Below are positions 17,651-35,201 of a stretch of DNA of 64,000 nt, one piece after another. The position numbers and the translations under genes are program-made. Positions within the stretch are counted from its first letter, which is position 1. Each line of letters opens with the position of its first letter. The notes under the pieces are model-generated. The model was not told the DNA's origin and did not search any database. It saw nothing but the letters and a program-made list of their open reading frames with translations. This DNA comes from Escherichia coli (GTDB lineage Bacteria; Pseudomonadota; Gammaproteobacteria; Enterobacterales; Enterobacteriaceae): the NCBI RefSeq assembly GCF_036507355.1, contig NZ_AP027877.1, one strand, 5' to 3'.

Positions 17651-18139
17651 ATGAGACTGACATCTAAAGGGCGCTATGCCGTGACCGCAATGCTTGACGT
17701 TGCGCTCAACTCTGAAGCGGGCCCGGTACCGTTGGCTGATATTTCCGAACGTCAGGGAATTTCCCTTTCTTATCTGGAACAACTGTTTTCCCGTCTGCGT
17801 AAAAATGGTCTGGTTTCCAGCGTACGTGGACCAGGCGGTGGTTATCTGTTAGGCAAAGATGCCAGCAGCATCGCCGTTGGCGAAGTGATTAGCGCCGTTG
17901 ACGAATCTGTAGATGCCACCCGTTGTCAGGGTAAAGGCGGCTGCCAGGGCGGCGATAAATGCCTGACCCACGCGCTGTGGCGTGATTTGAGCGACCGTCT
18001 CACCGGTTTTCTCAACAACATTACTTTAGGCGAACTGGTTAATAACCAGGAAGTGCTGGATGTGTCTGGTCGTCAGCATACTCACGACGCGCCACGCACC
18101 CGCACACAAGACGCGATCGACGTTAAGTTACGCGCTTAA
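17651..18139 (+). CDS. iscR: Fe-S cluster regulator IscR (Rrf2 family)
   Basis: 162-aa ORF with HTH and Cys cluster ligands. Confidence 0.95.
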
Positions 18140-18250
18140 TAAAAAGAATTCAGAATCAGGCCGGAGTGCTAAATACTCCGTAAACACGGTCGTACATCCA
18201 GCCGGTAGCCTGGTTCCTTGCATTGAGTGATGTACGGAGTTTATAGAGCA

Positions 18251-19465
18251 ATGAAATTACCGATTTATCTCGACTACTCCGCAACCACGCCGGTGGACCC
18301 GCGTGTTGCCGAGAAAATGATGCAGTTTATGACGATGGACGGAACCTTTGGTAACCCGGCCTCCCGTTCTCACCGTTTCGGCTGGCAGGCTGAAGAAGCG
18401 GTAGATATCGCCCGTAATCAGATTGCCGATCTGGTCGGCGCTGATCCGCGTGAAATCGTCTTTACCTCTGGTGCAACCGAATCTGACAACCTGGCGATCA
18501 AAGGTGCAGCCAACTTTTATCAGAAAAAAGGCAAGCACATCATCACCAGCAAAACCGAACACAAAGCGGTACTGGATACCTGCCGTCAGCTGGAGCGCGA
18601 AGGTTTCGAAGTCACCTACCTGGCACCGCAGCGTAACGGTATTATCGACCTGAAAGAACTCGAAGCAGCGATGCGTGACGACACCATCCTCGTTTCTATC
18701 ATGCACGTGAATAACGAAATCGGCGTGGTACAGGATATCGCGGCTATCGGCGAAATGTGTCGTGCTCGTGGCATTATCTATCACGTTGATGCAACCCAGA
18801 GCGTGGGCAAACTGCCTATCGATCTGAGCCAGTTGAAAGTTGACCTGATGTCTTTCTCCGGTCACAAAATCTATGGCCCGAAAGGTATTGGTGCGCTGTA
18901 TGTGCGTCGTAAACCGCGCGTACGCATCGAAGCGCAAATGCACGGCGGCGGTCACGAACGCGGTATGCGTTCCGGCACTCTGCCTGTTCACCAGATCGTC
19001 GGAATGGGCGAAGCCTATCGCATCGCAAAAGAAGAGATGGCGACCGAGATGGAACGTCTGCGCGGACTGCGTAACCGTCTGTGGAACGGCATCAAAGATA
19101 TCGAAGAAGTTTACCTGAACGGTGACCTGGAACACGGTGCGCCGAACATTCTCAACGTCAGCTTCAACTACGTTGAAGGTGAGTCGCTGATTATGGCGCT
19201 GAAAGACCTCGCGGTTTCTTCCGGTTCCGCCTGTACGTCAGCAAGCCTCGAACCGTCCTACGTGCTGCGCGCGCTGGGGCTGAACGACGAGCTGGCACAT
19301 AGCTCTATCCGTTTCTCTTTAGGTCGTTTTACTACTGAAGAAGAGATCGACTACACCATCGAGTTAGTTCGTAAATCCATCGGTCGTCTGCGTGACCTTT
19401 CTCCGCTGTGGGAAATGTACAAGCAGGGCGTGGATCTGAACAGCATCGAATGGGCTCATCATTAA
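18251..19465 (+). CDS. iscS: Cysteine desulfurase IscS
   Basis: [10 protein letters not shown] start (404 aa), PLP lysine motif [12 protein letters not shown], active-site SSGSACTS. Confidence 0.97.
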
Positions 19466-19492
19466 TCGGTATCGGAATCAGGAGAATTTATA

Positions 19493-19879
19493 ATGGCTTA
19501 CAGCGAAAAAGTTATCGACCATTACGAGAATCCGCGTAACGTGGGTTCCTTTGACAACAACGACGAGAACGTCGGCAGCGGCATGGTGGGTGCACCGGCC
19601 TGTGGCGACGTGATGAAGTTGCAGATTAAAGTCAACGATGAAGGTATCATTGAAGACGCGCGTTTTAAAACTTACGGCTGCGGTTCCGCTATCGCTTCCA
19701 GCTCCCTGGTCACCGAATGGGTGAAAGGGAAGTCTCTCGACGAAGCGCAGGCGATCAAAAACACCGATATTGCTGAAGAACTTGAACTGCCGCCGGTGAA
19801 AATTCACTGTTCTATTCTGGCAGAAGACGCGATCAAAGCCGCCATTGCGGACTATAAAAGCAAACGTGAAGCAAAATAA
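19493..19879 (+). CDS. iscU: Fe-S cluster scaffold IscU
   Basis: 128-aa ORF with the conserved Cys and LPPVK motif. Confidence 0.97.
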   Translation: MAYSEKVIDHYENPRNVGSFDNNDENVGSGMVGAPACGDVMKLQIKVNDEGIIEDARFKTYGCGSAIASSSLVTEWVKGKSLDEAQAIKNTDIAEELELPPVKIHCSILAEDAIKAAIADYKSKREAK

Positions 19880-19895
19880 GAGTTGAGGTTTGGTT

Positions 19896-20219
19896 ATGTC
19901 GATTACACTGAGCGACAGTGCAGCAGCGCGAGTAAATACCTTTCTGGCTAACCGCGGTAAAGGGTTTGGCCTGCGTCTGGGCGTGAGAACCTCCGGGTGT
20001 TCAGGTATGGCTTATGTACTGGAATTTGTTGACGAACCGACGCCGGAAGACATCGTGTTTGAAGACAAAGGCGTGAAAGTCGTGGTCGATGGCAAGAGCC
20101 TGCAATTTCTGGACGGTACGCAGCTGGACTTCGTAAAAGAAGGCCTGAACGAAGGGTTTAAATTCACCAACCCGAACGTCAAAGATGAGTGTGGTTGCGG
20201 CGAAAGCTTCCACGTTTGA
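19896..20219 (+). CDS. iscA: Fe-S A-type carrier IscA
   Basis: MSITLSD start (107 aa), C-terminal CGCGESF motif. Confidence 0.95.
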
Positions 20220-20233
20220 TGCGCATACCGATA

Positions 20234-20269
20234 ACCCCACCGTGGTCGCCTGCGCGTGGGGTTTGTTTT
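20234..20269 (+). terminator. Hairpin followed by T-tract between iscA and hscB (candidate partial terminator)
   Basis: CCCCAC...GTGGGG stem followed by tttgtttt. Confidence 0.4.
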
Positions 20270-20314
20270 ACCTGATTCGCCGTTATCGCGGCGGATCGCA
20301 GCCCTGAGAATGTT

Positions 20315-20830
20315 ATGGATTACTTCACCCTCTTTGGCTTGCCTGCCCGTTATCAACTCGATACCCAGGCACTGAGCCTGCGTTTTCAGGATCTACAACG
20401 TCAGTATCATCCTGATAAATTCGCCAGCGGAAGCCAGGCGGAACAACTCGCCGCCGTACAGCAATCTGCAACCATTAACCAGGCCTGGCAAACGCTGCGT
20501 CATCCGTTAATGCGCGCGGAATATTTGCTTTCTTTGCACGGCTTTGATCTCGCCAGCGAGCAGCATACTGTGCGCGACACCGCGTTCCTGATGGAACAGT
20601 TGGAGCTGCGCGAAGAGCTGGACGAGATCGAACAGGCGAAAGATGAAGCGCGGCTGGAAAGCTTTATCAAACGTGTGAAAAAGATGTTTGATACCCGCCA
20701 TCAGTTGATGGTTGAACAGTTAGACAACGAGACGTGGGACGCGGCGGCGGATACCGTGCGTAAGCTGCGTTTTCTCGATAAACTGCGAAGCAGTGCCGAA
20801 CAACTCGAAGAAAAACTGCTCGATTTTTAA
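20315..20830 (+). CDS. hscB: Co-chaperone HscB (J-domain)
   Basis: 171-aa ORF with J-domain HPD motif. Confidence 0.95.
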
Positions 20831-20846
20831 TTTCTGGAAGCTAAAC

Positions 20847-22697
20847 ATGGCCTTATTACAAATTAGTGAACCTGGTTTGAGTGCTGCGCCGCATCAGCGA
20901 CGTCTGGCGGCCGGTATTGACCTGGGCACAACCAACTCGCTGGTGGCGACAGTGCGCAGCGGTCAGGCCGAAACGTTAGCCGACCATGAAGGCCGTCACC
21001 TGCTGCCATCTGTTGTTCACTATCAACAGCAAGGGCATTCGGTGGGTTATGACGCGCGTACTAATGCAGCGCTCGATACCGCCAACACAATTAGTTCTGT
21101 TAAACGCCTGATGGGACGCTCGCTGGCTGATATCCAGCAACGCTATCCGCATCTGCCTTATCAATTCCAGGCCAGCGAAAACGGCCTGCCGATGATTGAA
21201 ACGGCGGCGGGGCTGCTGAACCCGGTGCGCGTTTCTGCGGACATCCTCAAAGCACTGGCGGCGCGGGCAACTGAAGCCCTGGCAGGCGAGCTGGATGGTG
21301 TCGTTATCACCGTTCCGGCGTACTTTGACGATGCCCAGCGTCAGGGCACCAAAGACGCGGCGCGTCTGGCGGGCCTTCACGTCCTGCGCTTACTTAACGA
21401 ACCGACCGCTGCGGCTATCGCCTACGGGCTGGATTCCGGTCAGGAAGGCGTGATCGCCGTTTATGACCTCGGTGGCGGGACGTTTGATATTTCCATTCTG
21501 CGCTTAAGTCGCGGCGTGTTTGAAGTGCTGGCAACCGGCGGTGATTCCGCGCTCGGCGGCGATGATTTCGACCATCTGCTGGCGGATTACATTCGCGAGC
21601 AGGCGGGCATTCCTGATCGTAGCGATAACCGCGTTCAGCGTGAACTGCTGGATGCCGCCATTGCAGCCAAAATCGCGCTGAGCGATGCGGACTCCGTGAC
21701 CGTTAACGTTGCGGGCTGGCAGGGCGAAATCAGCCGTGAACAATTCAATGAACTGATCGCGCCACTGGTAAAACGAACCTTACTGGCTTGTCGTCGCGCG
21801 CTGAAAGACGCGGGTGTAGAAGCTGATGAAGTGCTGGAAGTGGTGATGGTGGGCGGTTCTACTCGCGTGCCGCTGGTGCGTGAACGGGTAGGCGAATTTT
21901 TCGGTCGTCCACCGCTGACTTCCATCGACCCGGATAAAGTCGTCGCTATTGGCGCGGCGATTCAGGCGGATATTCTGGTGGGTAACAAGCCAGACAGCGA
22001 AATGCTGTTGCTTGATGTGATCCCACTGTCGCTGGGCCTCGAAACGATGGGCGGCCTGGTGGAGAAAGTGATTCCGCGTAATACCACTATTCCGGTGGCC
22101 CGCGCTCAGGATTTCACCACCTTTAAAGATGGTCAGACGGCGATGTCTATCCATGTAATGCAGGGTGAGCGCGAACTGGTGCAGGACTGCCGCTCACTGG
22201 CGCGTTTTGCGCTGCGTGGTATTCCGGCGCTACCGGCTGGCGGTGCGCATATTCGCGTGACGTTCCAGGTCGATGCCGACGGTCTTTTGAGCGTGACGGC
22301 GATGGAGAAATCCACCGGCGTTGAGGCGTCTATTCAGGTCAAACCGTCTTACGGTCTGACCGATAGCGAAATCGCTTCGATGATCAAAGACTCAATGAGC
22401 TATGCCGAGCAGGACGTAAAAGCCCGAATGCTGGCAGAACAAAAAGTAGAAGCGGCGCGTGTGCTGGAAAGTCTGCACGGCGCGCTGGCTGCTGATGCCG
22501 CGCTGTTAAGCGCCGCAGAACGTCAGGTCATTGACGATGCTGCCGCTCACCTGAGTGAAGTGGCGCAGGGCGATGACGTTGACGCCATCGAACAAGCGAT
22601 TAAAAACGTAGACAAACAAACCCAGGATTTCGCCGCTCGCCGCATGGACCAGTCGGTTCGTCGTGCGCTGAAAGGCCATTCCGTGGACGAGGTTTAA
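20847..22697 (+). CDS. hscA: Hsp70-type chaperone HscA
   Basis: [10 protein letters not shown] start (616 aa), Hsp70 ATPase motifs ([16 protein letters not shown]). Confidence 0.96.
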
Positions 22698-22698
22698 T

Positions 22699-23034
22699 AT
22701 GCCAAAGATTGTTATTTTGCCTCATCAGGATCTCTGTCCTGATGGCGCTGTTCTGGAAGCTAATAGCGGTGAAACCATTCTCGACGCAGCTCTGCGTAAC
22801 GGTATCGAGATTGAACACGCCTGTGAAAAATCCTGTGCTTGCACCACCTGCCACTGCATCGTTCGTGAAGGTTTTGACTCGCTTCCCGAAAGCTCAGAGC
22901 AGGAAGACGACATGCTGGACAAAGCCTGGGGACTGGAGCCGGAAAGCCGTTTAAGCTGCCAGGCGCGCGTCACCGACGAAGATTTAGTGGTCGAAATCCC
23001 GCGTTACACTATCAACCATGCGCGTGAGCATTAA
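22699..23034 (+). CDS. fdx: [2Fe-2S] ferredoxin Fdx
   Basis: 111-aa ORF with CxxxxxCxxC...C cluster ligands. Confidence 0.95.
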
Positions 23035-23045
23035 CAGAGGTTAGT

Positions 23046-23246
23046 ATGGGACTTAAGTGGACCGATAGCCGCGAAATTGGCGAAGCACTGTACGATGCGT
23101 ATCCCGATCTTGATCCGAAAACGGTTCGATTCACCGATATGCATCAGTGGATTTGCGATCTGGAAGATTTCGACGACGACCCGCAGGCATCCAACGAGAA
23201 AATCCTCGAAGCGATTTTGTTAGTCTGGCTGGACGAAGCCGAATAA
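23046..23246 (+). CDS. iscX: Fe-S assembly protein IscX
   Basis: 66-aa acidic ORF downstream of fdx. Confidence 0.92.
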
Positions 23247-23490
23247 TTTCCGCGTCATGCTTCACGCCGCAGATGCGTTGGCTGCGCTCGTTCACCCCAG
23301 TCACATAGTTATCTATGCTCCTGGGGCTTCACTCACTTGCCACGTGATTCGGCCTTTTGGCCTCACCCCTCCGGGGCCAGCGCAAGCGCTGTTCAAAACG
23401 CAATGCGTTTTGTCCTGCAACGCGAATCATTTAGCGGAAAAATCCTGGGGCTGCCAACTGGCGGCCCTTTTACAAAGAAGGATAACTAAA

Positions 23491-24774
23491 ATGACAGAAG
23501 CGATGAAGATTACCCTCTCTACCCAACCTGCCGACGCGCGCTGGGGAGAAAAAGCAACTTACAGCATTAATAATGACGGCATTACCCTGCATTTGAACGG
23601 GGTAGACGATCTGGGGCTGATCCAGCGTGCGGCGCGCAAGATTGACGGTCTGGGCATCAAGCATGTTCAGTTAAGCGGTGAAGGCTGGGATGCGGATCGC
23701 TGCTGGGCATTCTGGCAAGGTTACAAAGCCCCGAAAGGCACGCGTAAAGTGGAGTGGCCGGATCTGGACGATGCCCAGCGACAGGAACTGGATAACCGCC
23801 TGTTGATCATCGACTGGGTGCGTGACACCATCAACGCACCGGCGGAAGAGCTGGGGCCATCGCAACTGGCACAGCGTGCTGTTGATCTGATCAGCAACGT
23901 CGCAGGCGATCGTGTGACTTATCGGATCACCAAAGGCGAAGATCTGCGTGAGCAAGGTTATATGGGGCTGCACACCGTCGGACGCGGTTCAGAACGTTCT
24001 TCGGTATTGCTGGCGCTGGATTACAACCCAACTGGCGATAAAGAAGCGCCAGTGTACGCGTGCCTGGTAGGTAAAGGTATCACTTTTGACTCCGGCGGCT
24101 ACAGCATCAAACAGACTGCGTTTATGGACTCGATGAAGTCGGACATGGGCGGCGCGGCAACGGTTACCGGGGCGCTGGCATTTGCCATTACGCGCGGACT
24201 GAACAAGCGCGTGAAGCTGTTCCTCTGCTGTGCGGATAACCTGATTAGCGGCAATGCGTTCAAGCTGGGCGATATCATCACCTATCGCAACGGTAAAAAA
24301 GTTGAAGTGATGAACACTGATGCCGAAGGGCGTCTGGTGCTGGCCGATGGTCTGATTGATGCCAGTGCGCAGAAACCGGAACTGATCATTGATGCGGCGA
24401 CCCTCACCGGGGCGGCGAAAACTGCGCTGGGTAATGATTATCACGCGTTGTTCAGTTTTGACGATGCGCTTGCCGGTCGTTTGCTGGCGAGTGCCTCACA
24501 AGAGAACGAACCATTCTGGCGTCTGCCGCTGGCGGAATTCCACCGCAGCCAGCTGCCGTCTAACTTTGCCGAACTGAACAATACCGGAAGCGCGGCGTAT
24601 CCGGCAGGCGCGAGCACGGCGGCGGGCTTCCTGTCGCACTTTGTTGAGAACTATCAGCAAGGCTGGCTGCATATCGACTGCTCGGCGACTTACCGTAAAG
24701 CGCCGGTTGAACAGTGGTCTGCGGGTGCTACGGGACTTGGTGTGCGCACGATTGCTAATCTGTTAACGGCGTAA
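23491..24774 (+). CDS. pepB: Aminopeptidase B (M17 leucyl aminopeptidase family)
   Basis: Start [10 protein letters not shown] with AAGGA SD (427 aa); M17 signature NTDAEGRL; ORF track start 23257 is an upstream in-frame extension. Confidence 0.93.
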
Positions 24775-24780
24775 ACTAAT

Positions 24781-24888
<108 letters not shown>

Positions 24889-24916
24889 CCCGAACGTTGA
24901 ATGAATTGTGGTTCTT

Positions 24917-25693
24917 ATGTCCGAAACAAAAAATGAACTTGAAGACCTGCTGGAAAAAGCAGCAACCGAACCGGCGCACCGCCCGGCTTTTTTCCGTACT
25001 CTACTGGAATCCACCGTCTGGGTGCCTGGTACGGCGGCGCAGGGCGAGGCTGTGGTTGAAGAGAGCGCGCTTGATTTACAGCACTGGGAAAAAGAAGACG
25101 GCACCAGCGTCATTCCTTTTTTTACCTCGTTAGAAGCACTTCAACAGGCGGTTGACGGCGAACAGGCATTTGTTGTAATGCCCGTTCGCACATTGTTTGA
25201 GATGACCCTTGGCGAAACGCTCTTCCTTAATGCCAAACTGCCAACCGGTAAAGAATTTATGCCGCGTGAAATCAGTTTGTTGATTGGTGAAGAGGGAAAT
25301 CCGCTGAGCAGTCAGGAAGTACTGGAAGGCGGCGAATCGCTGATATTATCGGAAGTCGCAGAGCCGCCAGCACAAATGATTGATTCACTCACCACCTTAT
25401 TTAAAACCATTAAACCAGTGAAGCGTGCTTTTATCTGTTCAATTAAAGAGAACGAAGAGGCACAGCCTAATTTACTTATTGGTATTGAAGCCGATGGTGA
25501 TATCGAAGAAATTATTCAGGCGGCGGGAAGTGTAGCAACCGATACATTACCTGGCGATGAACCAATCGATATTTGCCAGGTGAAAAAAGGGGAAAAAGGA
25601 ATTAGCCATTTTATTACCGAACATATTGCGCCATTCTATGAACGTCGTTGGGGTGGTTTTTTGCGTGACTTTAAACAGAACCGGATAATCTAA
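24917..25693 (+). CDS. sseB: SseB (enhanced serine sensitivity protein B)
   Basis: ORF MSETKNELEDLL (258 aa); the ORF track start at 24908 is a GTG; synteny next to pepB. Confidence 0.88.
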   Translation: MSETKNELEDLLEKAATEPAHRPAFFRTLLESTVWVPGTAAQGEAVVEESALDLQHWEKEDGTSVIPFFTSLEALQQAVDGEQAFVVMPVRTLFEMTLGETLFLNAKLPTGKEFMPREISLLIGEEGNPLSSQEVLEGGESLILSEVAEPPAQMIDSLTTLFKTIKPVKRAFICSIKENEEAQPNLLIGIEADGDIEEIIQAAGSVATDTLPGDEPIDICQVKKGEKGISHFITEHIAPFYERRWGGFLRDFKQNRII

Positions 25694-25694
25694 A

Positions 25695-26000
25695 ATATGC
25701 CGCCCCAAAGGGCGGCATTCGGGCTTACCTGCTGTTCTGAAGGTTGTTAACCACCAGTAAATTGTTGCCGGAGAGACTCAGGTTATTATTTACCTCGGTT
25801 AACAGCGCACCAGAAACAATAAGTACGATACAAAAGCACCGTATCTTCATTGTGCGGTCCATGCGAAGACCGCATCACGACAGCACCACTGGCGATATTG
25901 CCGCGATAGCAAGCGCTGTGAAACACCTGCATTTACGGCCACGGAACATCCTTTCCTAAAGCCAGCGCCCGTTTGCGAGACGGCGGAAAGGGCCGGTGTC
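25695..26000 (-). ncRNA. ryfA: RyfA-like RNA, copy 1 (mRNA for a small hydrophobic protein); 5' end not determined
   Basis: Minus-strand hairpin gccgccc-tttg-gggcggc plus AUAUUUUA tail at about 25695-25722; location between sseB and sseA as for K-12 ryfA. Confidence 0.5.
25725..25850 (-). CDS. timP: TimP-like small hydrophobic protein, 41 aa (MKIRCFCIVLIVSGALLTEVNNNLSLSGNNLLVVNNLQNSR), copy 1
   Basis: Intact ATG...TAA ORF on the minus strand, below the 60-aa ORF-track cutoff; hydrophobic N-terminus; terminator immediately downstream; weak SD. Confidence 0.5.
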   Translation of the reverse strand: MKIRCFCIVLIVSGALLTEVNNNLSLSGNNLLVVNNLQNSR

Positions 26001-26034
26001 GATAATACGCTAAATAAACAATAATTACTCTCTT

Positions 26035-26063
26035 TTGCTTGACAAAAAGAGAGTTGCTGGCGA
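26035..26063 (+). promoter_or_regulatory. Candidate sigma70 promoter of the divergent sRNA, copy 1
   Basis: TTGACA at 26035-26040, 17-bp spacer, GAATAT at 26058-26063. Confidence 0.4.
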
Positions 26064-26067
26064 ATAT

Positions 26068-26177
26068 TGCTCTGCTGTGAAGCACCTGCGTTGCTCATGC
26101 AACACAAGTCAATCTGCTGGAGAGGCCGCGAACCAAACCGGCAACAAATAACCGCCTGATTTTGGCGGTTTTTTGTT
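26068..26177 (+). ncRNA. TimR/RyfB-like antisense sRNA candidate, copy 1
   Basis: Promoter-like element upstream, terminator ccgcc-tgattt-ggcgg-TTTTTT at 26150-26177; 5' segment complementary to the copy-1 RyfA 5' UTR. Confidence 0.45.
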
Positions 26178-26378
26178 GCTTAAAGAAAGTGAATTTACAT
26201 GTTTAAGTAATATCTTTTACCGGTTAGTATTTTTAATATTGAGCGGGATTTGTTTATATTTGTCTGAATTCGGACTAATAAGCCAGGTCATTTTAATATC
26301 GAACATATTGCGCCATTCTATGAACGTCGCTGGGATGGTTTTTTGCGTGACTTTAAACAGAACCGGATAATCTAAAAT

Positions 26379-26680
26379 ATGCCGCCCCAAAGGGCGGCAT
26401 TCGGGCTTACCTGCTGTTCTGAAGGTTGTTAACCACCAGTAAATTGTCGCCGGAGAGACTCCGGTTATTATTTACCTCGGTTAACAGCGCACCAGAAACA
26501 ATAAGTACGATACAGAAGCACCGTATCTTCATTGTGCGGTCCATGCGAAGACCGCATCAAGACAGCACCACTGGCGATATTGCCGCGATAGCAAGCACTG
26601 TGGGGTGCCTGTATTTACGGTCATGGAACATCCTTTCCTAAAGCCATCGCCCGTTTGCGAGACGGCGAAAAGGGCCATTA
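26379..26680 (-). ncRNA. ryfA: RyfA-like RNA, copy 2; 5' end not determined
   Basis: Second copy of the same terminator hairpin and ORF-bearing block. Confidence 0.45.
26407..26532 (-). CDS. timP: TimP-like small hydrophobic protein, 41 aa, copy 2 (two substitutions relative to copy 1: L24R, N29D)
   Basis: Intact ORF MKIRCFCIVLIVSGALLTEVNNNRSLSGDNLLVVNNLQNSR on the minus strand. Confidence 0.5.
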   Translation of the reverse strand: MKIRCFCIVLIVSGALLTEVNNNRSLSGDNLLVVNNLQNSR

Positions 26681-26756
26681 AGAATAATACTCTCATGTTT
26701 GAATAATTACTCTGTTTATTATCTTGACACAGCCAGGCATAAAAGAGAGTATTTCA

Positions 26757-26862
26757 ACACTGTGGGGTGCCTGCGTTGCTCCGGCAACACAAGTCAACCT
26801 GCTGGAAAGGCCGCGAACCAGACCAGCAATAAAAAACCGCCAAATTCGGCGGTTTTTTATTG
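26757..26862 (+). ncRNA. TimR/RyfB-like antisense sRNA candidate, copy 2
   Basis: TTGACA at 26724-26729; terminator accgcc-aaattc-ggcggt-TTTTTT at 26835-26862 (bidirectional, also serves sseA); 5' segment has a perfect 16-nt match to the copy-2 RyfA 5' UTR. Confidence 0.45.
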
Positions 26863-26874
26863 CCTGTAAAATAC

Positions 26875-27720
26875 TTATTTCACTGGCTCAACCGGTAAAT
26901 CTGCCCGCGCGCCCCATTCACTCCATGCGCCGTCGTACAGTTTCACGTTTGGCACATCCAGCGTCGCGAGTGCTAACAAAACCACGGCTGCCGTTACACC
27001 AGAGCCGCAGCTGACGATAATTGGTTTGTCGTAGCTGACGCCGCGACCAAAAAATATCGCATCCAGTTCATCGGTCGTTTTTAGTTCGCCTTCGCGCACC
27101 AGTTCCGTCCACGGAACGTTCAATGCACCGGGAATATGTCCGCGACGTAAACCTGGGCGAGGTTCATCAACTTCTGCGTTAAAACGTGCAGCCGGGCGGG
27201 CATCAATAATTTGCGCCGTATTTTCATGGCTTGCCAATAACACATCGGTTACTTTCACCACTGCTTCAGGATTAAACGCGGCGTTAAACTCTCCTTCCGG
27301 CAGCTCTACTGCACCTTCTTCTAACAACAGATCATCGCGCTGCCAGCCTGCAAGTCCACCCCCCAGAATCGACACTTTCTCTACACCAAAGGTGCGCAGC
27401 ATCCACCATGCTCGTGGGGCTGAGAAAAGATTACCTTCGTCATAGACAATCAGGTGCTTATCCTGGTTAACGCCTAATTCACGCATCGCCACGGCGAACG
27501 TTTCCGGGCGCGGCAGCATGTGCGGAAGCGGGGAAGTGTGATCAGAAAGCGCTTCGATATCAAAAAACACTGCGCCGGGAATATGTCCATTCAGATACTC
27601 CTGAGCAACGTTACGATCTTCCTGTCCAGGCGACGCCATGCGGGCATCGATAATCTGAATTTCCGGGTCATCAATATGTTCGGCGAGCCAGTCGGCTCCT
27701 ACAAACCATGTCGTGGACAT
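26875..27720 (-). CDS. sseA: 3-mercaptopyruvate sulfurtransferase (tandem rhodanese domains)
   Basis: Start MSTTWFVGADWL (281 aa); rhodanese active-site Cys (CGSGVTA); ORF track extends upstream to 27879. Confidence 0.93.
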   Translation of the reverse strand: MSTTWFVGADWLAEHIDDPEIQIIDARMASPGQEDRNVAQEYLNGHIPGAVFFDIEALSDHTSPLPHMLPRPETFAVAMRELGVNQDKHLIVYDEGNLFSAPRAWWMLRTFGVEKVSILGGGLAGWQRDDLLLEEGAVELPEGEFNAAFNPEAVVKVTDVLLASHENTAQIIDARPAARFNAEVDEPRPGLRRGHIPGALNVPWTELVREGELKTTDELDAIFFGRGVSYDKPIIVSCGSGVTAAVVLLALATLDVPNVKLYDGAWSEWGARADLPVEPVK

Positions 27721-27926
27721 AGGCATCTCCATTTTTGCCGGGGTTAGGCTAAATTGTCGGATGTTTAGTGAAAAGCGACAAGCAAAAGAGGCTGATTTGG
27801 CTGTCTGAGCCACAATTCTCACTAAAATTCGGATTGTATGGGCGTGATACTGAATTACATAACGTAAATTCTCACGCATAATAATTATTCGACGTTGCTA
27901 ACGGGCCATTGTGGCAGGGATGAAAA

Positions 27927-30900
27927 ATGAAAAAGTTACGCGTAGCCGCCTGCATGCTAATGCTGGCGCTGGCAGGGTGCGACAACAACGATAACGCGCC
28001 AACAGCGGTGAAAAAAGATGCGCCTTCTGAAGTTACTAAAGCGGCCTCTTCAGAAAACGCGAGTTCAGCAAAACTCTCCGTGCCGGAGCGACAAAAACTG
28101 GCACAACAGAGTGTAGGTAAGGCGCTGACATTACTGGATCTCTCTGAAGTCCAACTTAATGGTGCAGCCACGCTGGTGCTGACGTTCTCCATCCCTCTCG
28201 ACCCGGATCAGGATTTCTCACGCGTTATTCATGTCGTCGATAAAAAAAGCGGCAAAGTGGATGGTGCCTGGGAGTTGTCAGATAATCTTAAAGAGCTGCG
28301 TTTACGCCACCTCGAACCGAAACGTGATTTGATCGTTACTATTGGCAAAGAGGTCAAAGCACTCAACAACGCAACCTTCAGTAAAGATTACGAAAAAACT
28401 ATAACTACCCGCGATATCCAGCCCAGCGTCGGTTTTGCCAGCCGTGGTTCGCTGCTGCCTGGTAAAGTCGTTGAAGGGCTGCCGGTAATGGCGCTCAACG
28501 TTAATAATGTCGATGTTAACTTCTTCCGCGTTAAGCCAGAATCTCTGCCAGCATTCATTAGCCAATGGGAATACCGCAATTCGCTGGCGAACTGGCAGTC
28601 AGACAAACTGCTGCAGATGGCGGATCTGGTCTACACCGGACGGTTTGATCTCAATCCTGCGCGTAACACCCGTGAAAAATTATTGCTGCCGCTGGGCGAT
28701 ATCAAACCGCTTCAGCAGGCGGGCGTGTATCTGGCTGTGATGAATCAGGCTGGACGTTACGATTACAGTAATCCCGCGACGCTGTTTACGTTAAGTGATA
28801 TCGGCGTTTCAGCTCACCGTTATCACAATCGTCTGGATATCTTTACCCAAAGTCTGGAAAACGGCGCGGCCCAGCAAGGAATTGAAGTCTCTTTATTAAA
28901 TGAGAAAGGGCAGACTCTGACTCAGGCAACCAGTGACGCTCAGGGGCATGTGCAGCTGGAAAATGATAAAAATGCGGCATTACTGCTGGCACGTAAAGAC
29001 GGTCAGACAACGCTACTCGATTTAAAACTTCCGGCGCTGGACTTAGCAGAATTTAACATTGCAGGTGCGCCAGGCTATAGCAAACAGTTTTTCATGTTTG
29101 GCCCGCGCGATCTTTATCGCCCGGGTGAAACGGTAATCCTCAATGGTTTGCTGCGTGATGCAGACGGTAAAGCGTTGCCCAATCAACCCATCAAGTTAGA
29201 CGTGATTAAACCCGATGGGCAGGTACTCAGGAGCGTCGTTAGTCAGCCGGAAAATGGCCTCTACCACTTTACCTGGCCACTCGATAGCAATGCGGCAACC
29301 GGTATGTGGCATATTCGCGCTAACACGGGCGATAACCAGTATCGGATGTGGGATTTCCACGTCGAAGATTTTATGCCAGAGCGTATGGCGCTGAATCTGA
29401 CCGGTGAGAAAACCCCGCTTACGCCGAATGAAGAAGTGAAATTCTCCGTGGTGGGATACTACCTGTACGGTGCACCTGCTAATGGTAATACTTTGCAAGG
29501 GCAACTTTTCCTGCGCCCACTGCGTGAGGCTGTGTCAGCCTTACCTGGTTTTGAATTCGGCGATATAGCTGCCGAAAACCTTTCCCGCACGCTGGATGAA
29601 GTTCAGTTGACGCTGGATGATAAAGGGCGCGGCGAAGTTTCTACAGAAAGCCAGTGGAAGGAAACGCATTCCCCATTACAGGTTATTTTCCAGGGTAGTT
29701 TGCTGGAATCGGGCGGTCGCCCAGTGACGCGCCGCGCTGAGCAGGCTATCTGGCCTGCCGATGCATTGCCGGGGCTCCGTCCGCAGTTCGCCTCGAAATC
29801 GGTTTACGATTATCGCACTGACAGCACGGTGAAACAGCCCATTGTTGATGAAGGCAGTAACGCCGCTTTTGACATCGTTTATAGCGATGCGCAAGGCGTG
29901 AAAAAAGCCGTGTCGGGCTTGCAGGTGCGCCTGATTCGCGAACGCCGCGATTACTACTGGAACTGGTCAGAAGATGAAGGCTGGCAGTCACAGTTTGATC
30001 AAAAAGATCTGATCGAAAATGAACAAACTCTGGATCTGAAAGCGGACGAAACCGGCAAGGTCAGTTTTCCGGTAGAGTGGGGAGCTTATCGTCTGGAAGT
30101 CAAAGCGCCGAATGAAGCGGTCAGTAGTGTTCGTTTCTGGGCTGGCTATAGCTGGCAGGACAACAGCGACGGGAGCGGTGCCGTGCGACCCGACCGTGTC
30201 ACGCTGAAACTGGATAAAGCCAGTTATCGCCCTGGCGATACCATTAAGTTGCATATTGCCGCGCCAACGGCGGGTAAAGGTTATGCGATGGTCGAGTCCA
30301 GTGAAGGGCCGCTGTGGTGGCAAGAGATTGATGTTCCGGCTCAAGGGCTGGATCTGACGATTCCGGTCGATAAAACCTGGAATCGTCATGATCTTTATTT
30401 GAGTACGCTGGTGGTGCGTCCTGGCGATAAATCTCGCTCCGCGACGCCAAAACGCGCGGTTGGTGTGTTGCATCTGCCGCTTGGTGATGAAAACCGTCGC
30501 CTCGATTTGGCGCTGGAAACACCAGCAAAAATGCGTCCCAATCAACCATTAACCGTGAAAATTAAAGCCAGCACTAAAAATGGCGAGAAGCCTAAACAGG
30601 TGAATGTGCTGGTGTCTGCCGTTGATAGTGGTGTGCTGAATATTACTGACTACGTCACGCCAGATCCGTGGCAGGCGTTCTTTGGTCAGAAACGCTATGG
30701 CGCAGACATTTACGATATTTACGGTCAGGTTATTGAAGGTCAGGGGCGTCTGGCAGCTCTGCGTTTCGGTGGCGATGGTGATGAGCTGAAACGTGGTGGT
30801 AAACCGCCGGTCAATCACGTCAATATTGTCGCGCAGCAGGCGCTGCCGGTAACGCTCAACGAACAGGGCGAAGGCTCGGTTACACTGCCGATTGGCGATT

Positions 30901-32888
30901 TTAACGGTGAATTGCGCGTCATGGCGCAAGCCTGGACGGCAGATGACTTCGGTAGCAACGAAAGCAAAGTGATAGTTGCCGCACCGGTGATTGCTGAACT
31001 GAACATGCCGCGCTTTATGGCGAGTGGCGATACCTCGCGTCTGACGCTGGATATCACTAATCTTACCGATAAACCGCAAAAACTGAACGTTGCCCTGACC
31101 GCCAGTGGTTTGCTTGAACTGGTCAGCGATTCACCCGCAGCCGTTGAATTAGCGCCAGGTGTGCGTACTACGCTGTTTATCCCGGTGCGAGCATTGCCGG
31201 GTTATGGCGATGGAGAAATTCAGGCCACCATTAGCGGGTTAGCGTTACCGGGTGAAACCGTTGCCGATCAGCATAAGCAGTGGAAAATCGGCGTCCGTCC
31301 GGCGTTCCCGGCACAAACGGTTAATTACGGTACGGCGTTACAGCCTGGTGAGACATGGGCGATTCCGGCGGATGGATTGCAAAACTTCTCGCCTGTTACG
31401 CTGGAAGGGCAATTGTTGTTGAGCGGCAAACCACCGCTGAACATCGCACGTTATATCAAAGAGTTAAAAGCGTATCCGTACGGCTGTCTTGAGCAAACCG
31501 CCAGCGGCCTGTTCCCGTCACTTTATACCAACGCAGCCCAACTGCAGGCGTTGGGCATCAAAGGCGACAGTGATGAGAAACGCCGTGCATCGGTCGATAT
31601 CGGCATTTCCCGTTTGCTGCAAATGCAACGTGATAACGGCGGCTTTGCGCTGTGGGATAAAAACAGTGACGAAGAGTACTGGCTGACGGCTTACGTGATG
31701 GATTTCCTGGTCCGCGCAGGCGAACAGGGTTACAGCGTGCCGACAGACGCCATTAACCGGGGTAATGAGCGTCTGCTGCGCTATTTACAAGATCCGGGCA
31801 TGATGTCGATCCCGTACGCGGATAATCTCAAAGCCAGTAAATTCGCCGTACAGTCTTACGCTGCGCTGGTGTTGGCCCGTCAGCAAAAGGCTCCGCTGGG
31901 TGCGCTGCGTGAAATCTGGGAGCATCGTGCAGATGCCGCTTCTGGTTTACCGCTGCTGCAACTTGGCGTTGCGCTGAAAACCATGGGTGATGCAACGCGT
32001 GGTGAAGAAGCGATTGTGCTGGCGCTGAAAACGCCGAGAAATAGTGATGAGCGGATATGGCTGGGTGATTACGGTAGTCCACTGCGCGACAACGCGTTGA
32101 TGCTCTCCTTGCTGGAAGAAAATAAACTGCTACCCGATGAGCAGAACACTTTGCTGAACACGCTTTCGCAGCAGGCATTTGGTGAACGCTGGCTATCGAC
32201 CCAGGAAAGTAACGCGTTGTTCCTGGCTGCCCGTACGATTCAGGATTTACCCGGTAAATGGCAGGCGCAAACCTCTTTCTCAGCTGAGCCGCTGACAGGC
32301 GAGAAAGCGCAAAACAGTAATCTGAATAGCGATCAACTTGCTACCTTGCAGGTGACCAACAGTGGCGATCAGCCGTTATGGCTGCGTGTGGATGCCAGCG
32401 GTTATCCGCAATCCGCACCTTTACCGGCGAACAATGTGCTGCAAATCGAGCGTCATATTCTTGGTACTGATGGTAAGAGCAAATCGCTGGACTCGTTACG
32501 TAGCGGCGATCTGGTGCTGGTCTGGTTGCAGGTAAAAGCCAGTAACAGCGTGCCGGACGCGTTAGTCGTGGATCTGCTGCCTGCGGGTCTGGAACTGGAA
32601 AACCAGAATCTGGCGAACGGTAGCGCCAGCCTGGAGCAAAGTGGTGGCGAAGTGCAGAACTTACTGAACCAGATGCAGCAGGCGAGTATTAAGCACATTG
32701 AGTTCCGTGACGATCGCTTTGTGGCGGCGGTTGCCGTTGATGAATACCAACCGGTAACGCTGGTGTATCTGGCGCGGGCGGTGACGCCGGGAACGTATCA
32801 GGTACCGCAACCGATGGTGGAATCAATGTATGTTCCCCAATGGCGGGCGACCGGCGCGGCTGAAGATTTGCTGATTGTCAGACCGTAA
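27927..32888 (+). CDS. yfhM: Alpha-2-macroglobulin family lipoprotein (ECAM)
   Basis: 1653-aa ORF, lipoprotein signal LALAGC, thioester motif CLEQ at 31485-31496. Confidence 0.95.
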   Translation: MKKLRVAACMLMLALAGCDNNDNAPTAVKKDAPSEVTKAASSENASSAKLSVPERQKLAQQSVGKALTLLDLSEVQLNGAATLVLTFSIPLDPDQDFSRVIHVVDKKSGKVDGAWELSDNLKELRLRHLEPKRDLIVTIGKEVKALNNATFSKDYEKTITTRDIQPSVGFASRGSLLPGKVVEGLPVMALNVNNVDVNFFRVKPESLPAFISQWEYRNSLANWQSDKLLQMADLVYTGRFDLNPARNTREKLLLPLGDIKPLQQAGVYLAVMNQAGRYDYSNPATLFTLSDIGVSAHRYHNRLDIFTQSLENGAAQQGIEVSLLNEKGQTLTQATSDAQGHVQLENDKNAALLLARKDGQTTLLDLKLPALDLAEFNIAGAPGYSKQFFMFGPRDLYRPGETVILNGLLRDADGKALPNQPIKLDVIKPDGQVLRSVVSQPENGLYHFTWPLDSNAATGMWHIRANTGDNQYRMWDFHVEDFMPERMALNLTGEKTPLTPNEEVKFSVVGYYLYGAPANGNTLQGQLFLRPLREAVSALPGFEFGDIAAENLSRTLDEVQLTLDDKGRGEVSTESQWKETHSPLQVIFQGSLLESGGRPVTRRAEQAIWPADALPGLRPQFASKSVYDYRTDSTVKQPIVDEGSNAAFDIVYSDAQGVKKAVSGLQVRLIRERRDYYWNWSEDEGWQSQFDQKDLIENEQTLDLKADETGKVSFPVEWGAYRLEVKAPNEAVSSVRFWAGYSWQDNSDGSGAVRPDRVTLKLDKASYRPGDTIKLHIAAPTAGKGYAMVESSEGPLWWQEIDVPAQGLDLTIPVDKTWNRHDLYLSTLVVRPGDKSRSATPKRAVGVLHLPLGDENRRLDLALETPAKMRPNQPLTVKIKASTKNGEKPKQVNVLVSAVDSGVLNITDYVTPDPWQAFFGQKRYGADIYDIYGQVIEGQGRLAALRFGGDGDELKRGGKPPVNHVNIVAQQALPVTLNEQGEGSVTLPIGDFNGELRVMAQAWTADDFGSNESKVIVAAPVIAELNMPRFMASGDTSRLTLDITNLTDKPQKLNVALTASGLLELVSDSPAAVELAPGVRTTLFIPVRALPGYGDGEIQATISGLALPGETVADQHKQWKIGVRPAFPAQTVNYGTALQPGETWAIPADGLQNFSPVTLEGQLLLSGKPPLNIARYIKELKAYPYGCLEQTASGLFPSLYTNAAQLQALGIKGDSDEKRRASVDIGISRLLQMQRDNGGFALWDKNSDEEYWLTAYVMDFLVRAGEQGYSVPTDAINRGNERLLRYLQDPGMMSIPYADNLKASKFAVQSYAALVLARQQKAPLGALREIWEHRADAASGLPLLQLGVALKTMGDATRGEEAIVLALKTPRNSDERIWLGDYGSPLRDNALMLSLLEENKLLPDEQNTLLNTLSQQAFGERWLSTQESNALFLAARTIQDLPGKWQAQTSFSAEPLTGEKAQNSNLNSDQLATLQVTNSGDQPLWLRVDASGYPQSAPLPANNVLQIERHILGTDGKSKSLDSLRSGDLVLVWLQVKASNSVPDALVVDLLPAGLELENQNLANGSASLEQSGGEVQNLLNQMQQASIKHIEFRDDRFVAAVAVDEYQPVTLVYLARAVTPGTYQVPQPMVESMYVPQWRATGAAEDLLIVRP

Positions 32889-35201
32889 ATGCCTCGCTTG
32901 TTAACCAAACGCGGCTGCTGGATAACGCTGGCAGCTGCGCCATTTCTCCTTTTTCTTGCAGCGTGGGGAGCAGATAAACTCTGGCCTCTACCGCTGCATG
33001 AAGTCAATCCCGCACGAGTGGTCGTGGCGCAGGATGGTACGCCGCTCTGGCGCTTCGCCGATGCTGACGGCATCTGGCGTTATCCGGTAACAATCGAAGA
33101 TGTTTCTCCACGTTACCTTGAAGCGCTGATCAATTATGAAGATCGCTGGTTCTGGAAGCATCCGGGGGTGAATCCATTCTCGGTGGCGCGCGCAGCATGG
33201 CAAGATCTCACTTCGGGACGGGTTATTTCCGGTGGCAGCACGCTCACTATGCAGGTTGCTCGTCTGCTTGATCCTCACCCCAAAACATTTGGCGGCAAAA
33301 TTCGCCAGCTCTGGCGCGCGTTGCAACTGGAATGGCATCTGTCTAAGCGTGAAATTCTGACCTTGTATCTTAACCGCGCTCCGTTTGGCGGTACGTTGCA
33401 GGGGATCGGTGCGGCAAGTTGGGCTTATCTCGGAAAGTCGCCTGCGAATTTAAGCTATTCCGAGGCGGCAATGCTGGCGGTTTTGCCGCAAGCGCCCAGC
33501 CGTCTTCGCCCGGATCGTTGGCCGGAGCGTGCCGAAGCCGCGCGTAATAAAGTGCTCGAACGGATGGCCGTGCAAGGTGTGTGGTCCCGTGAGCAGGTAA
33601 AAGAGTCAAGGGAAGAACCCATCTGGCTGGCACCCCGACAAATGCCGCAACTGGCACCGCTGTTTTCGCGCATGATGCTCGGTAAAAGCAAAAGCGACAA
33701 AATCGTTACTACGCTGGATGCCGGTCTTCAACGACGTCTGGAAGAACTGGCGCAAAACTGGAAAGGACGTTTACCACCGCGCAGCTCACTGGCGATGATC
33801 GTGGTTGATCATACCGATATGCGTGTTCGCGGCTGGGTGGGATCGGTAGATCTCAACGATGATTCACGCTTTGGTCATGTTGATATGGTCAATGCGATCC
33901 GATCGCCAGGGTCGGTTCTCAAACCGTTTGTTTACGGTCTGGCGCTGGATGAAGGCTTGATCCATCCGGCATCGCTGTTGCAAGACGTCCCCCGGCGCAC
34001 CGGTGATTATCGACCAGGTAACTTTGATAGCGGTTTTCATGGCCCGATCAGCATGAGCGAGGCGCTGGTGCGCTCGCTGAATTTACCTGCTGTGCAGGTG
34101 CTGGAAGCCTATGGACCGAAACGGTTTGCGGCAAAATTACGCAATGTTGGATTGCCGTTGTATCTGCCCAACGGCGCTGCGCCCAATCTTTCGCTCATTC
34201 TCGGCGGTGCTGGTGCAAAACTGGAAGATATGGCGGCAGCGTATACCGCGTTTGCTCGCCACGGCAAGGCAGGCAAATTGCGCTTACAGCCTGACGATCC
34301 GCTGCTTGAACGGCCTTTAATGTCGTCGGGGGCTGCGTGGATCATTCGCCGGATTATGGCTGATGAAGCGCAACCCTTGCCGGATGGTGCCTTGCCGCGC
34401 GTCGCTCCACTGGCATGGAAAACGGGCACCAGCTATGGCTATCGTGACGCTTGGGCGATTGGGGTTAACGCTCGTTATGTCATTGGGATCTGGACTGGCA
34501 GACCGGACGGCACGCCCGTTGTTGGTCAGTTTGGTTTTGCCAGCGCCGTACCATTGTTGAATCAGGTCAATAATATCTTACTGTCGCGCAGTGCTAATCT
34601 GCCGGAAGACCCGCGCCCGAACTCAGTCACTCGTGGCGTTATCTGCTGGCCGGGCGGACAGTCTTTGCCGGAAGGTGACGGTAACTGTCGCCGCCGCCTG
34701 GCAACCTGGCTGCTGGACGGGAGTCAGCCGCCAACTCTATTACTGCCGGAGCAGGAAGGCATTAATGGCATTCGTTTCCCCATCTGGCTGGATGAAAATG
34801 GCAAACGTGTTGCCGCTGATTGCCCGCAAGCGCGACAAGAAATGATAAATGTCTGGCCGCTACCGCTGGAACCCTGGTTGCCCGCATCAGAACGTCGCGC
34901 TGTGCGCTTACCACCGGCCTCGACAATTTGCCCGCCATACGGTCACGATGCCCAGCTCCCGCTGCAGCTGACAGGCGTTCGCGATGGCGAGATTATTAAA
35001 CGTTTACCGGGCGCAGCGGAAGCGACTTTGCCGTTGCAATCAAGTGGAGGGGCAGGTGAACGCTGGTGGTTTCTGAATGGCGAACCGTTAACTGAACGCG
35101 GGCGCAACGTGACCCTGCATTTGACGGATAAAGGTGATTATCAATTGCTGGTGATGGATGACGTAGGGCAAATCGCGACAGTGAAATTTGTCATGCAATA
35201 G
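32889..35201 (+). CDS. pbpC: Penicillin-binding protein 1C (glycosyltransferase/transpeptidase)
   Basis: 770-aa ORF directly abutting the yfhM stop (TAAATG); GT51 and transpeptidase domains. Confidence 0.95.
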   Translation: MPRLLTKRGCWITLAAAPFLLFLAAWGADKLWPLPLHEVNPARVVVAQDGTPLWRFADADGIWRYPVTIEDVSPRYLEALINYEDRWFWKHPGVNPFSVARAAWQDLTSGRVISGGSTLTMQVARLLDPHPKTFGGKIRQLWRALQLEWHLSKREILTLYLNRAPFGGTLQGIGAASWAYLGKSPANLSYSEAAMLAVLPQAPSRLRPDRWPERAEAARNKVLERMAVQGVWSREQVKESREEPIWLAPRQMPQLAPLFSRMMLGKSKSDKIVTTLDAGLQRRLEELAQNWKGRLPPRSSLAMIVVDHTDMRVRGWVGSVDLNDDSRFGHVDMVNAIRSPGSVLKPFVYGLALDEGLIHPASLLQDVPRRTGDYRPGNFDSGFHGPISMSEALVRSLNLPAVQVLEAYGPKRFAAKLRNVGLPLYLPNGAAPNLSLILGGAGAKLEDMAAAYTAFARHGKAGKLRLQPDDPLLERPLMSSGAAWIIRRIMADEAQPLPDGALPRVAPLAWKTGTSYGYRDAWAIGVNARYVIGIWTGRPDGTPVVGQFGFASAVPLLNQVNNILLSRSANLPEDPRPNSVTRGVICWPGGQSLPEGDGNCRRRLATWLLDGSQPPTLLLPEQEGINGIRFPIWLDENGKRVAADCPQARQEMINVWPLPLEPWLPASERRAVRLPPASTICPPYGHDAQLPLQLTGVRDGEIIKRLPGAAEATLPLQSSGGAGERWWFLNGEPLTERGRNVTLHLTDKGDYQLLVMDDVGQIATVKFVMQ

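Follow-up and report, generated by a model that had tools for sequence, protein, structure and literature searches.

The question raised by this locus is whether a 41-codon open reading frame (ORF) is the gene of a small membrane toxin or an accident of sequence. The frame lies at 25725-25850 on the minus strand of a 64 000-nucleotide (nt) stretch of Escherichia coli DNA (contig NZ_AP027877.1; "the window" refers to the whole of this stretch), and an earlier note made from the sequence had read it as the ORF of a type I toxin resembling TimP. The system of reference is TimP and its antitoxin small RNA (sRNA) TimR in Salmonella enterica serovar Typhimurium (Andresen et al. 2020, PMC7667032; Eleftheraki & Holmqvist 2024, PMC11228461; Eleftheraki et al. 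2026, PMC13000454). Our analysis identifies the ORF, with a probability of about 85%, as timP, which encodes the toxin of the type I toxin-antitoxin module timP/TimR of enterobacteria; the gene is borne by the RNA called RyfA and occurs here in two tandem copies. Translation, membrane targeting and toxicity of the Escherichia/Shigella allele we infer by analogy with the Salmonella work.

The 41-codon frame and the TimP family

Conceptual translation of 25725-25850 reproduced the intact ORF of the earlier note exactly, yielding MKIRCFCIVLIVSGALLTEVNNNLSLSGNNLLVVNNLQNSR (41 amino acids, aa) followed by TAA. The peptide carries two basic residues, K2 and R4, and then some 16 hydrophobic residues; mean Kyte-Doolittle hydropathy was 2.28 over residues 3-18 and -0.47 in the tail, and eight of the 41 residues were Asn. 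The description of a hydrophobic N-terminus with a polar, Asn-rich tail therefore held, and a basic/hydrophobic start followed by a polar C-terminal tail is the layout from which a signal anchor of the TimP kind would be predicted. Six bases past the stop codon begins an intrinsic terminator hairpin (25697-25718, minus strand; nine base pairs (bp), seven of them GC, with the tail ATTTTAGATT), followed by a run of T, much as had been noticed by eye. It corresponds to the terminal stem of the ryfA RNA model and sits just beyond the stop codon of the convergent gene sseB.

The length of the ORF is at chance level, as the window contained 237 ATG-initiated ORFs of at least 41 aa compared to a mean of 233 after shuffling. 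The weight of the ORF consequently rests on its family match and on its conservation across genera. Against the curated family model NF040796 (small toxic inner membrane protein TimP) the peptide of copy 1 scored 77.7 bits, with a cut-off of 45, and its residues 1-39 aligned to positions 1-39 of the 40-position profile. The alignment to Salmonella TimP that had been suggested as a check gave, in BLASTP against P0121, 19 identities over 39 residues (49%) at an E value of 2e-11. P0121 (MKIRCFCVVLLVSGTLCLHADRSYPGNSAPVTLNVQSR) agrees with the published TimP in its 38 aa, in Ala20/Asp21 and in the Leu at -3. The first seven residues, MKIRCFC, were identical in the two peptides and open the shared N-terminus MKIRCFC.VL.VSG. 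The window peptide differs from its Salmonella counterpart in having 41 instead of 38 aa and an Asn-rich tail unlike that of Salmonella, with an overall identity of 49%.

The Salmonella protein was reached stepwise, from homologous loci of other genera through a profile of 16 homologues to a protein search, and this profile retrieved proteins named TimP from Salmonella, Citrobacter, Erwinia and Kalamiella. Single-sequence searches with the 41-aa peptide, both word-indexed and by exhaustive phmmer against 1.84 billion representatives, found only Escherichia and Shigella. An identical 126-nt coding sequence (CDS) is annotated as timP (WP_001491247.1) in E. coli 14EC033, and RefSeq gives it the same name in the closest E. 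coli genomes inspected. Public databases list the exact peptide as TimP on 775 contigs, and a 45-aa entry from Shigella dysenteriae 1617 ends in the same 41 residues. The K-12 annotation lists timP (b4812), ryfA (b4440) and timR (b4811). The intergenic region itself was found in 5425 of 5426 complete E. coli genomes. The assignment as a TimP-like type I toxin ORF was thus correct, on the strength of the NF040796 score and of the timP annotation in RefSeq and K-12.

The note has thus correctly rediscovered a small membrane-toxin gene that was already known from E. coli, Shigella and Salmonella and is routinely annotated. It is not new, because the differences from Salmonella, including the two-copy state and the variable region discussed below, had already been described or annotated. 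Its discovery value is little, given that timP is present in RefSeq and in the K-12 annotation, has a curated family model and has had its control mechanism dissected in three papers. It does, however, show that a genuine toxin gene of fewer than 50 codons is recognisable from raw sequence, where an ORF track with a 60-aa limit hides such genes.

The ryfA RNA, its control elements and TimR

The ORF is carried on a minus-strand RNA unit (unit 1, 25692-25996) that matched the Rfam family ryfA (RF00126) over its full length, with 313.8 bits against a gathering score of 80 and coverage of model positions 1-296 of 296. The unit lies between sseA and sseB, convergent with sseB, and this order is common to 14EC033, K-12 and Salmonella, in which the locus reads yfhM-sseA-timP-sseB-pepB. 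The placement of the ORF in the ryfA position was accordingly upheld by both the full-length match and the conserved synteny. The 5' end of unit 1 probably falls near 25994, which would put the AUG at +145, as in Salmonella; the corresponding +1 in the second unit is 26676, and in both units it lies seven bases after a TATTAT -10 box, again as in Salmonella.

Control elements were placed by aligning both window units to the Salmonella timP mRNA, a comparison that gauges the pairing potential of the sequence and not the fold itself. The stem-loop SL4 (25854-25873, minus strand; +122..+141) has a stem with 6/6 pairs, identical to that of Salmonella, and holds both an upstream in-frame AUG (25860-25862) and the Shine-Dalgarno (SD) sequence, a weak GGA at 25858-25860, 7 nt before the AUG of timP and buried in the 3' arm. 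The earlier statement that the ORF lacks a strong SD was right in that only this weak GGA precedes the start codon, but the SD is sequestered in SL4 and not absent; a weak SD held inside SL4 is the published control principle of timP, and this accounts for the impression of a missing one.

Three further sites on the minus strand would make up the elements of a structural switch. Site 1 (25961-25967; +28..+34, CGCUGGC) would form the 5' half of a translation-activating pseudoknot, whose 3' half is site 3 in the SL3 loop (25887-25893; +102..+108, GCCAGUG); site 1 could alternatively pair with site 2 (25935-25940; +55..+60, GGCCGU), which in the active form would pair with the 5' arm of SL4. In unit 1 the pseudoknot between sites 1 and 3 offers 7/7 contiguous pairs at the published Salmonella positions, the helix between site 2 and +122..+127 offers 6/6 pairs, the same as in Salmonella, and the alternative helix between sites 1 and 2 offers 5/5 pairs, also at the Salmonella positions. 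The locus order, the RNA family and the AUG at +145 are thus shared with Salmonella timPR, as are the pairing elements (SL4, the pseudoknot and the helices 2-4 and 1-2), the terminator and the location of the TimR site.

The putative antitoxin gene of unit 1, TimR1, is of the RyfB type and occupies 26074-26174 on the plus strand, divergent from timP1, with its ends placed by homology to K-12 timR (b4811), to which it aligns. It starts about 80 nt upstream of the timP1 RNA on the opposite strand, behind a near-consensus sigma-70-like promoter (TTGACA-18-AATATT, 26039-26068), and ends in an intrinsic terminator (26150-26170) followed by a T-run. Its 5' end is predicted to pair with the TimR-binding site in SL2 of timP1 (25914-25933, minus strand; +62..+81, AAUGCAGGUGUUUCACAGCG) in a 20-bp duplex of 17 Watson-Crick and 3 G.U pairs, with a free energy (dG) of -37.5 kcal/mol. 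TimR1 thus has the layout of a type I antitoxin, a cognate antisense sRNA transcribed from a promoter of its own and ending in a terminator. Duplexes of this kind were computed in restricted windows together with a search for contiguous complementarity, as full-length folding gave meaningless whole-length duplexes. An automatic search for the partner of the unit 1 SL2 returned the opposite strand of the paralogous timP2 leader, a candidate that was discarded as an artefact of the duplication.

A complement of 16-22 nt to SL2, on the opposite strand and 66-83 nt upstream, was present in Salmonella, Citrobacter, Superficieibacter, Pantoea, Erwinia, Rahnella and Yersinia. Pairing between SL2 and TimR was found at the equivalent position in 18 other loci, with core sequences that vary by genus and co-vary with each other, and such co-varying complementarity is the signature of a conserved RNA-RNA interaction. 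The window conforms to this pattern, its SL2 loop and TimR seeds differing from those of Salmonella in sequence while still being mutually complementary. At the sequence level, the locus thus shows every testable hallmark of TimP peptides, of ryfA RNAs and of timPR modules.

In Salmonella, timP mRNA occurs abundantly but is poorly translated, with the SD trapped in SL4, and TimR has been demonstrated to repress timP by pairing with the SL2 loop of the active fold, which destabilises the pseudoknot and blocks initiation (PMC7667032, PMC11228461, PMC13000454). Translation requires the pseudoknot of sites 1 and 3, formed between the SL1 and SL3 loops, and the helix of site 2 with the SL4 5' arm (PMC11228461, PMC13000454), and the alternative helix of sites 1 and 2 constitutes the inactive fold (PMC13000454). 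The peptide is recovered uncleaved from the inner-membrane fraction and its overproduction leads to leaky cells (PMC7667032); Salmonella timP placed in the E. coli chromosome was toxic enough to serve as a selection (PMC13000454).

By analogy, a timP mRNA of about 303 nt would be produced constitutively from unit 1, and the locking of its weak SD in SL4 would leave the nascent RNA untranslated. A purely structural switch, in which the SL1-SL3 pseudoknot of sites 1 and 3 and the helix of site 2 with the SL4 5' arm both form, would free the SD and allow the 41-aa peptide to be made, whereas the helix of sites 1 and 2 would keep the RNA in the off state. The divergent TimR, through its 5' end, would pair with SL2 of the active form, break the pseudoknot and block initiation. 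The peptide itself, with its two basic residues, hydrophobic stretch of some 16 residues and polar tail, would act as an uncleaved inner-membrane signal anchor, and its overproduction might be expected to cause a leaky membrane and growth arrest.

Coding frame, start codon and a possible regulatory role of RyfA

Conservation of the frame was assessed in 19 distinct sequences from eight genera, ranging from Escherichia to Yersinia, Rahnella, Pantoea and Erwinia. All 19 contained an ORF of 38-41 aa that began with ATG 2 nt after SL4 and had no in-frame stop, and they shared the motif MK(I)R[CY]xCI..(I/V)V.G, followed by a tail of the type S.S.N(N/S)...V..N..(G/S)(K/R). The pooled ratio of non-synonymous to synonymous polymorphism (pN/pS) was 0.50 in the sense frame. 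Of the five other frames, four gave 0.82-1.04 and one, on the antisense strand, gave 0.52, which may mirror the constraint on the sense frame. Scanning a genome collection with the SL4 pattern GCGGTCNNNGCANNGACCGCAC listed matches that were mostly due to chance in GC-rich genomes; filtering with nhmmer left at least 18 true loci, with no Salmonella among the matches listed, and the Salmonella locus was obtained via its protein instead.

That the frame might be a chance ORF within a structured non-coding RNA, or that the 71-aa plus-strand ORF at 25744-25959 might be the real gene, is scarcely credible. ORFs of the 41-aa class are indeed equally frequent in the window and in shuffled sequence, and the antisense strand is free of stops over 44-94 codons in many homologues, one of its frames having the pN/pS of 0.52 mentioned above. 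Neither the antisense openness nor this ratio discriminates, so the case against the 71-aa ORF is based on other evidence. It and its counterpart in the second unit (26426-26641) start with TTG and had no match in the family search, the best being an unrelated archaeal methyltransferase at an E value of 0.058; a collection of 15 billion proteins does not contain the exact sequence, the ORFs are annotated in none of the genomes inspected and their ends are not conserved across genera. The sense frame, in contrast, matches a curated family and keeps its start, length and motif across genera, and the earlier view of the 71-aa ORFs as artefacts is in all probability correct. It is also very improbable that the real product is a 45-aa form starting at the upstream in-frame ATG (25860-25862), at which the ORF list opens the same frame (from 25862, MDRTMKIRC...). 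Both units of the window have this codon, as do K-12 and several sequences from Citrobacter and Yersinia, database entries of 45 and 42 aa exist, and 45 aa were predicted in the study of strain CFT073 (PMC8205139) and in some older annotations. However, it arises from the change that turns the Salmonella AAGGA into UGGA, the corresponding codon being AAG in Salmonella, Rahnella, Erwinia and Y. similis, and both the curated NF040796 model and RefSeq begin at MKIRC. Mutation of the downstream AUG in Salmonella abolished both the protein and toxicity (PMC7667032). The 41-aa start is thus the better one, because the upstream ATG is not conserved, lies within SL4 and has no SD of its own in front of it.

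A weightier alternative, though we still consider it unlikely, is that RyfA in Escherichia and Shigella acts mainly as a regulatory RNA, with effects on stress resistance, fimbriae, motility, ompC and virulence, and that the 41-codon frame is rarely or never translated and of little consequence. The two views are not exclusive, as a RyfA RNA could have both functions. Several observations weigh against a translated toxin, and some of them also speak for such an RNA. In uropathogenic E. coli CFT073, ryfA alleles in which the ORF was destroyed still complemented a ryfA deletion and restored wild-type phenotypes (PMC8205139). In S. dysenteriae, overproduction of RyfA1 removed the ompC mRNA, and a reporter fusion of green fluorescent protein to a predicted start gave no protein, the ORF being stated as 30 aa (Fris et al. 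2017, PMC5333039). According to a paper of 2026 on avian E. coli, whether the Escherichia/Shigella peptide is translated and toxic "remains to be determined". The C-terminal half of the copy 1 peptide diverges considerably from Salmonella TimP, and the window SD is weaker than that of Salmonella. Within Escherichia alone pN/pS was about 1.1 (seven sequences, too noisy a sample on its own), and some strains carry shortened TimP alleles of 34-37 aa; the constraint on the tail may therefore be weak. Against this, the frame is open with the same start in eight genera despite many nucleotide changes, and the entire machinery of the 5' untranslated region (UTR), which has no known function other than gating the translation of this ORF, is conserved down to the nucleotide. 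The 30-aa ORF tested in Shigella is not the 41-aa frame and was probably a different reading frame altogether, and deletion phenotypes are silent on whether the peptide is made. Across 52 distinct 41-aa variants from Escherichia and Shigella, substitutions tend to spare the hydrophobic N-terminal half, with 62 differences from the window peptide in residues 1-20 and 160 in residues 21-41, in agreement with the remark in the Salmonella work (PMC7667032) that it is the signal-like half that is conserved. A timP gene that encodes a translated toxin thus remains our preferred reading. Given the complementation by ORF-destroyed alleles and the reports from S. dysenteriae and avian E. coli, the RyfA RNA may nevertheless have functions besides encoding the peptide. 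The biological question touched upon here is whether the Escherichia/Shigella TimP, with its Asn-rich tail and weaker SD, is made and is toxic.

The shortened alleles comprise a 34-aa form from Shigella sonnei without the first seven residues, a 36-aa E. coli form with an in-frame deletion of VNNNR, and forms of 35 and 37 aa.

Two tandem units and related loci

Two timP/TimR units stand in tandem in the window, with a spacing of about 682 bp. The second copy of timP (26407-26532, minus strand) also encodes 41 aa, differing from copy 1 by L24R and N29D; its peptide is named TimP in the database, and against NF040796 it scored 83.8 bits (in the 45-aa form). The unit 2 RNA (26374-26678, minus strand) matched RF00126 with 315.1 bits and differs from unit 1 at 17 of 305 positions (288 identical). 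Five of the differences are consecutive and fall in the SL2 loop, where unit 1 has TGTTT, the "ryfA2" type of Fris et al., and unit 2 has CACCC, which is ryfA1-like. The duplication is seen as a direct repeat of 25607-25906 and 26289-26588 at 97% identity, and its boundary is marked by a plus-strand copy of the last 28 codons of sseB (26289-26375, translated as HFNIEHIAPFYERRWDGFLRDFKQNRII and a stop), annotated as an incomplete SseB pseudogene in the similar strain 14EC033. The region matched 5600 places in the 5425 complete E. coli genomes; the excess of about 175 places over genomes indicates that the two-copy state is a minority arrangement, at roughly 3%.

The putative antitoxin gene of unit 2, TimR2 (26759-26858, plus strand), repeats the TimR1 region in direct orientation (73% identity) and has a terminator-like inverted repeat at 26826-26863. 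TimR2 is predicted to form a perfect 16-bp duplex with timP2 at +66..+81 (dG -40.7 kcal/mol). The SL2 loops and TimR seeds have diverged together, TGTTT being matched with AAGCA and CACCC with GGGUG. Predicted cross-pairing was asymmetric, TimR2 (26759-26790) on SL2 of timP1 giving -32.2 kcal/mol with six G.U pairs and TimR1 on timP2 giving -22.1 kcal/mol. In S. dysenteriae, RyfB1, which is cognate to the CACCC type, lowered RyfA1 RNA, but RyfA2, of the TGTTT type, was not significantly affected (PMC5333039), so that pairing of TimR2 with timP1 appears to be disfavoured, at least at the level of RNA abundance.

Two single changes in unit 2 touch the switch. C30A (26647, corresponding to 25965 in unit 1) leaves one pseudoknot position mismatched, the one that is mismatched in Salmonella as well, and G56A (26621, corresponding to 25939) removes one pair of the site 1-2 helix and turns a G.U into an A-U pair in the SD-opening helix. 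On paper, C30A and G56A together should weaken the off-state helix of sites 1 and 2 and strengthen the helix that opens the SD. The sibling modules might then form an insulated pair with different translational set-points and not redundant copies, although this is speculative and we regard it as unlikely. If true, the locus would be a natural case of duplicated type I modules evolving orthogonal antitoxin recognition and different switch thresholds.

The closest described arrangement is that of S. dysenteriae, in which ryfA1/ryfA2 and ryfB1/ryfB2 resemble the window in having two tandem ryfA copies, about 95% identical, with the same 5-nt variable region (TGTTT or CACCC) and with divergent RNAs of about 100 nt complementary across it (PMC5333039). 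Unit 1, with its TGTTT, therefore corresponds to ryfA2 and not to ryfA1. Unlike our reading of the window, that study treated the RNAs as non-coding. K-12 timP (b4812) encodes a 41-aa orthologue of the unit 1 peptide (37 of 41 residues identical) and likewise has TGTTT in SL2 and a cognate TimR seed. In contrast to the window, however, K-12 retains a single timP, the second copy having been deleted to a 17-nt remnant. Salmonella, too, has one module where the window has two.

The K-12 locus (NC_000913.3, 2652000-2656500, at about 1341-1860 within this interval) contains two TimR-like genes beside its one timP. One is the annotated timR (b4811), with a seed cognate to TGTTT, which lies 400 nt upstream of timP, by sseA and just past the 17-nt remnant. 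The other is unannotated, adjoins timP on its upstream side and has a seed of the CGCGT type (CCGCUGAGACGCGCUUGC), as in E. whittamii TimR. In Yersinia pekkanenii, ryfA/timP matches were present on at least three separate contigs, and multiplication of timP is thus not confined to Escherichia and Shigella.

When set beside tisB/istR-1, zorO/orzO, shoB/ohsC and dinQ/agrB, timP shares a small hydrophobic membrane peptide, a long structured leader and a divergent sRNA whose pairing site in the 5' UTR lies far upstream of a ribosome-binding site that is sequestered. It differs from these classical type I toxins, according to the Salmonella work, in undergoing no nucleolytic processing, in relying on a pseudoknot-based switch and in encoding a peptide that resembles an uncleaved Sec signal sequence and not a plain transmembrane helix. 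The only sequence similarity to the classical systems found was on TimR2, where 26780-26861 (plus strand) matched the Rfam model of AgrB, the antitoxin of dinQ/agrB, below threshold (30.7 bits, gathering score 40, E value 0.02). Several further weak Rfam matches stack on the same terminator region, and the AgrB match is probably mere similarity between terminators.

The spacer between the two units matched Rfam IS128 RNA (RF00125) with 228.6 bits at 26132-26342 on the minus strand. This match is composed of the antisense of the duplicated sseB 3' fragment and of the TimR1 terminator read in the opposite direction, and the IS128 "sRNA" family may be a simple by-product of the duplication.

In the surroundings of the locus, no complete E. 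coli genome was more than 99.0% identical to the window over the 16 kb of 18000-34000, which probably points to an origin in Shigella, a group missing from that collection, or in a sparsely sampled Escherichia lineage. This segment had a median of 22 match places per genome, together with 80 places on plasmids, and so contains dispersed repeats. Between pepB and sseB, at 24754-24882, matches to naRNA4/CssrE and ES036/CssrF appeared on both strands below threshold (40.3 bits against 59.5), a pattern as expected of a palindromic element of the REP type.

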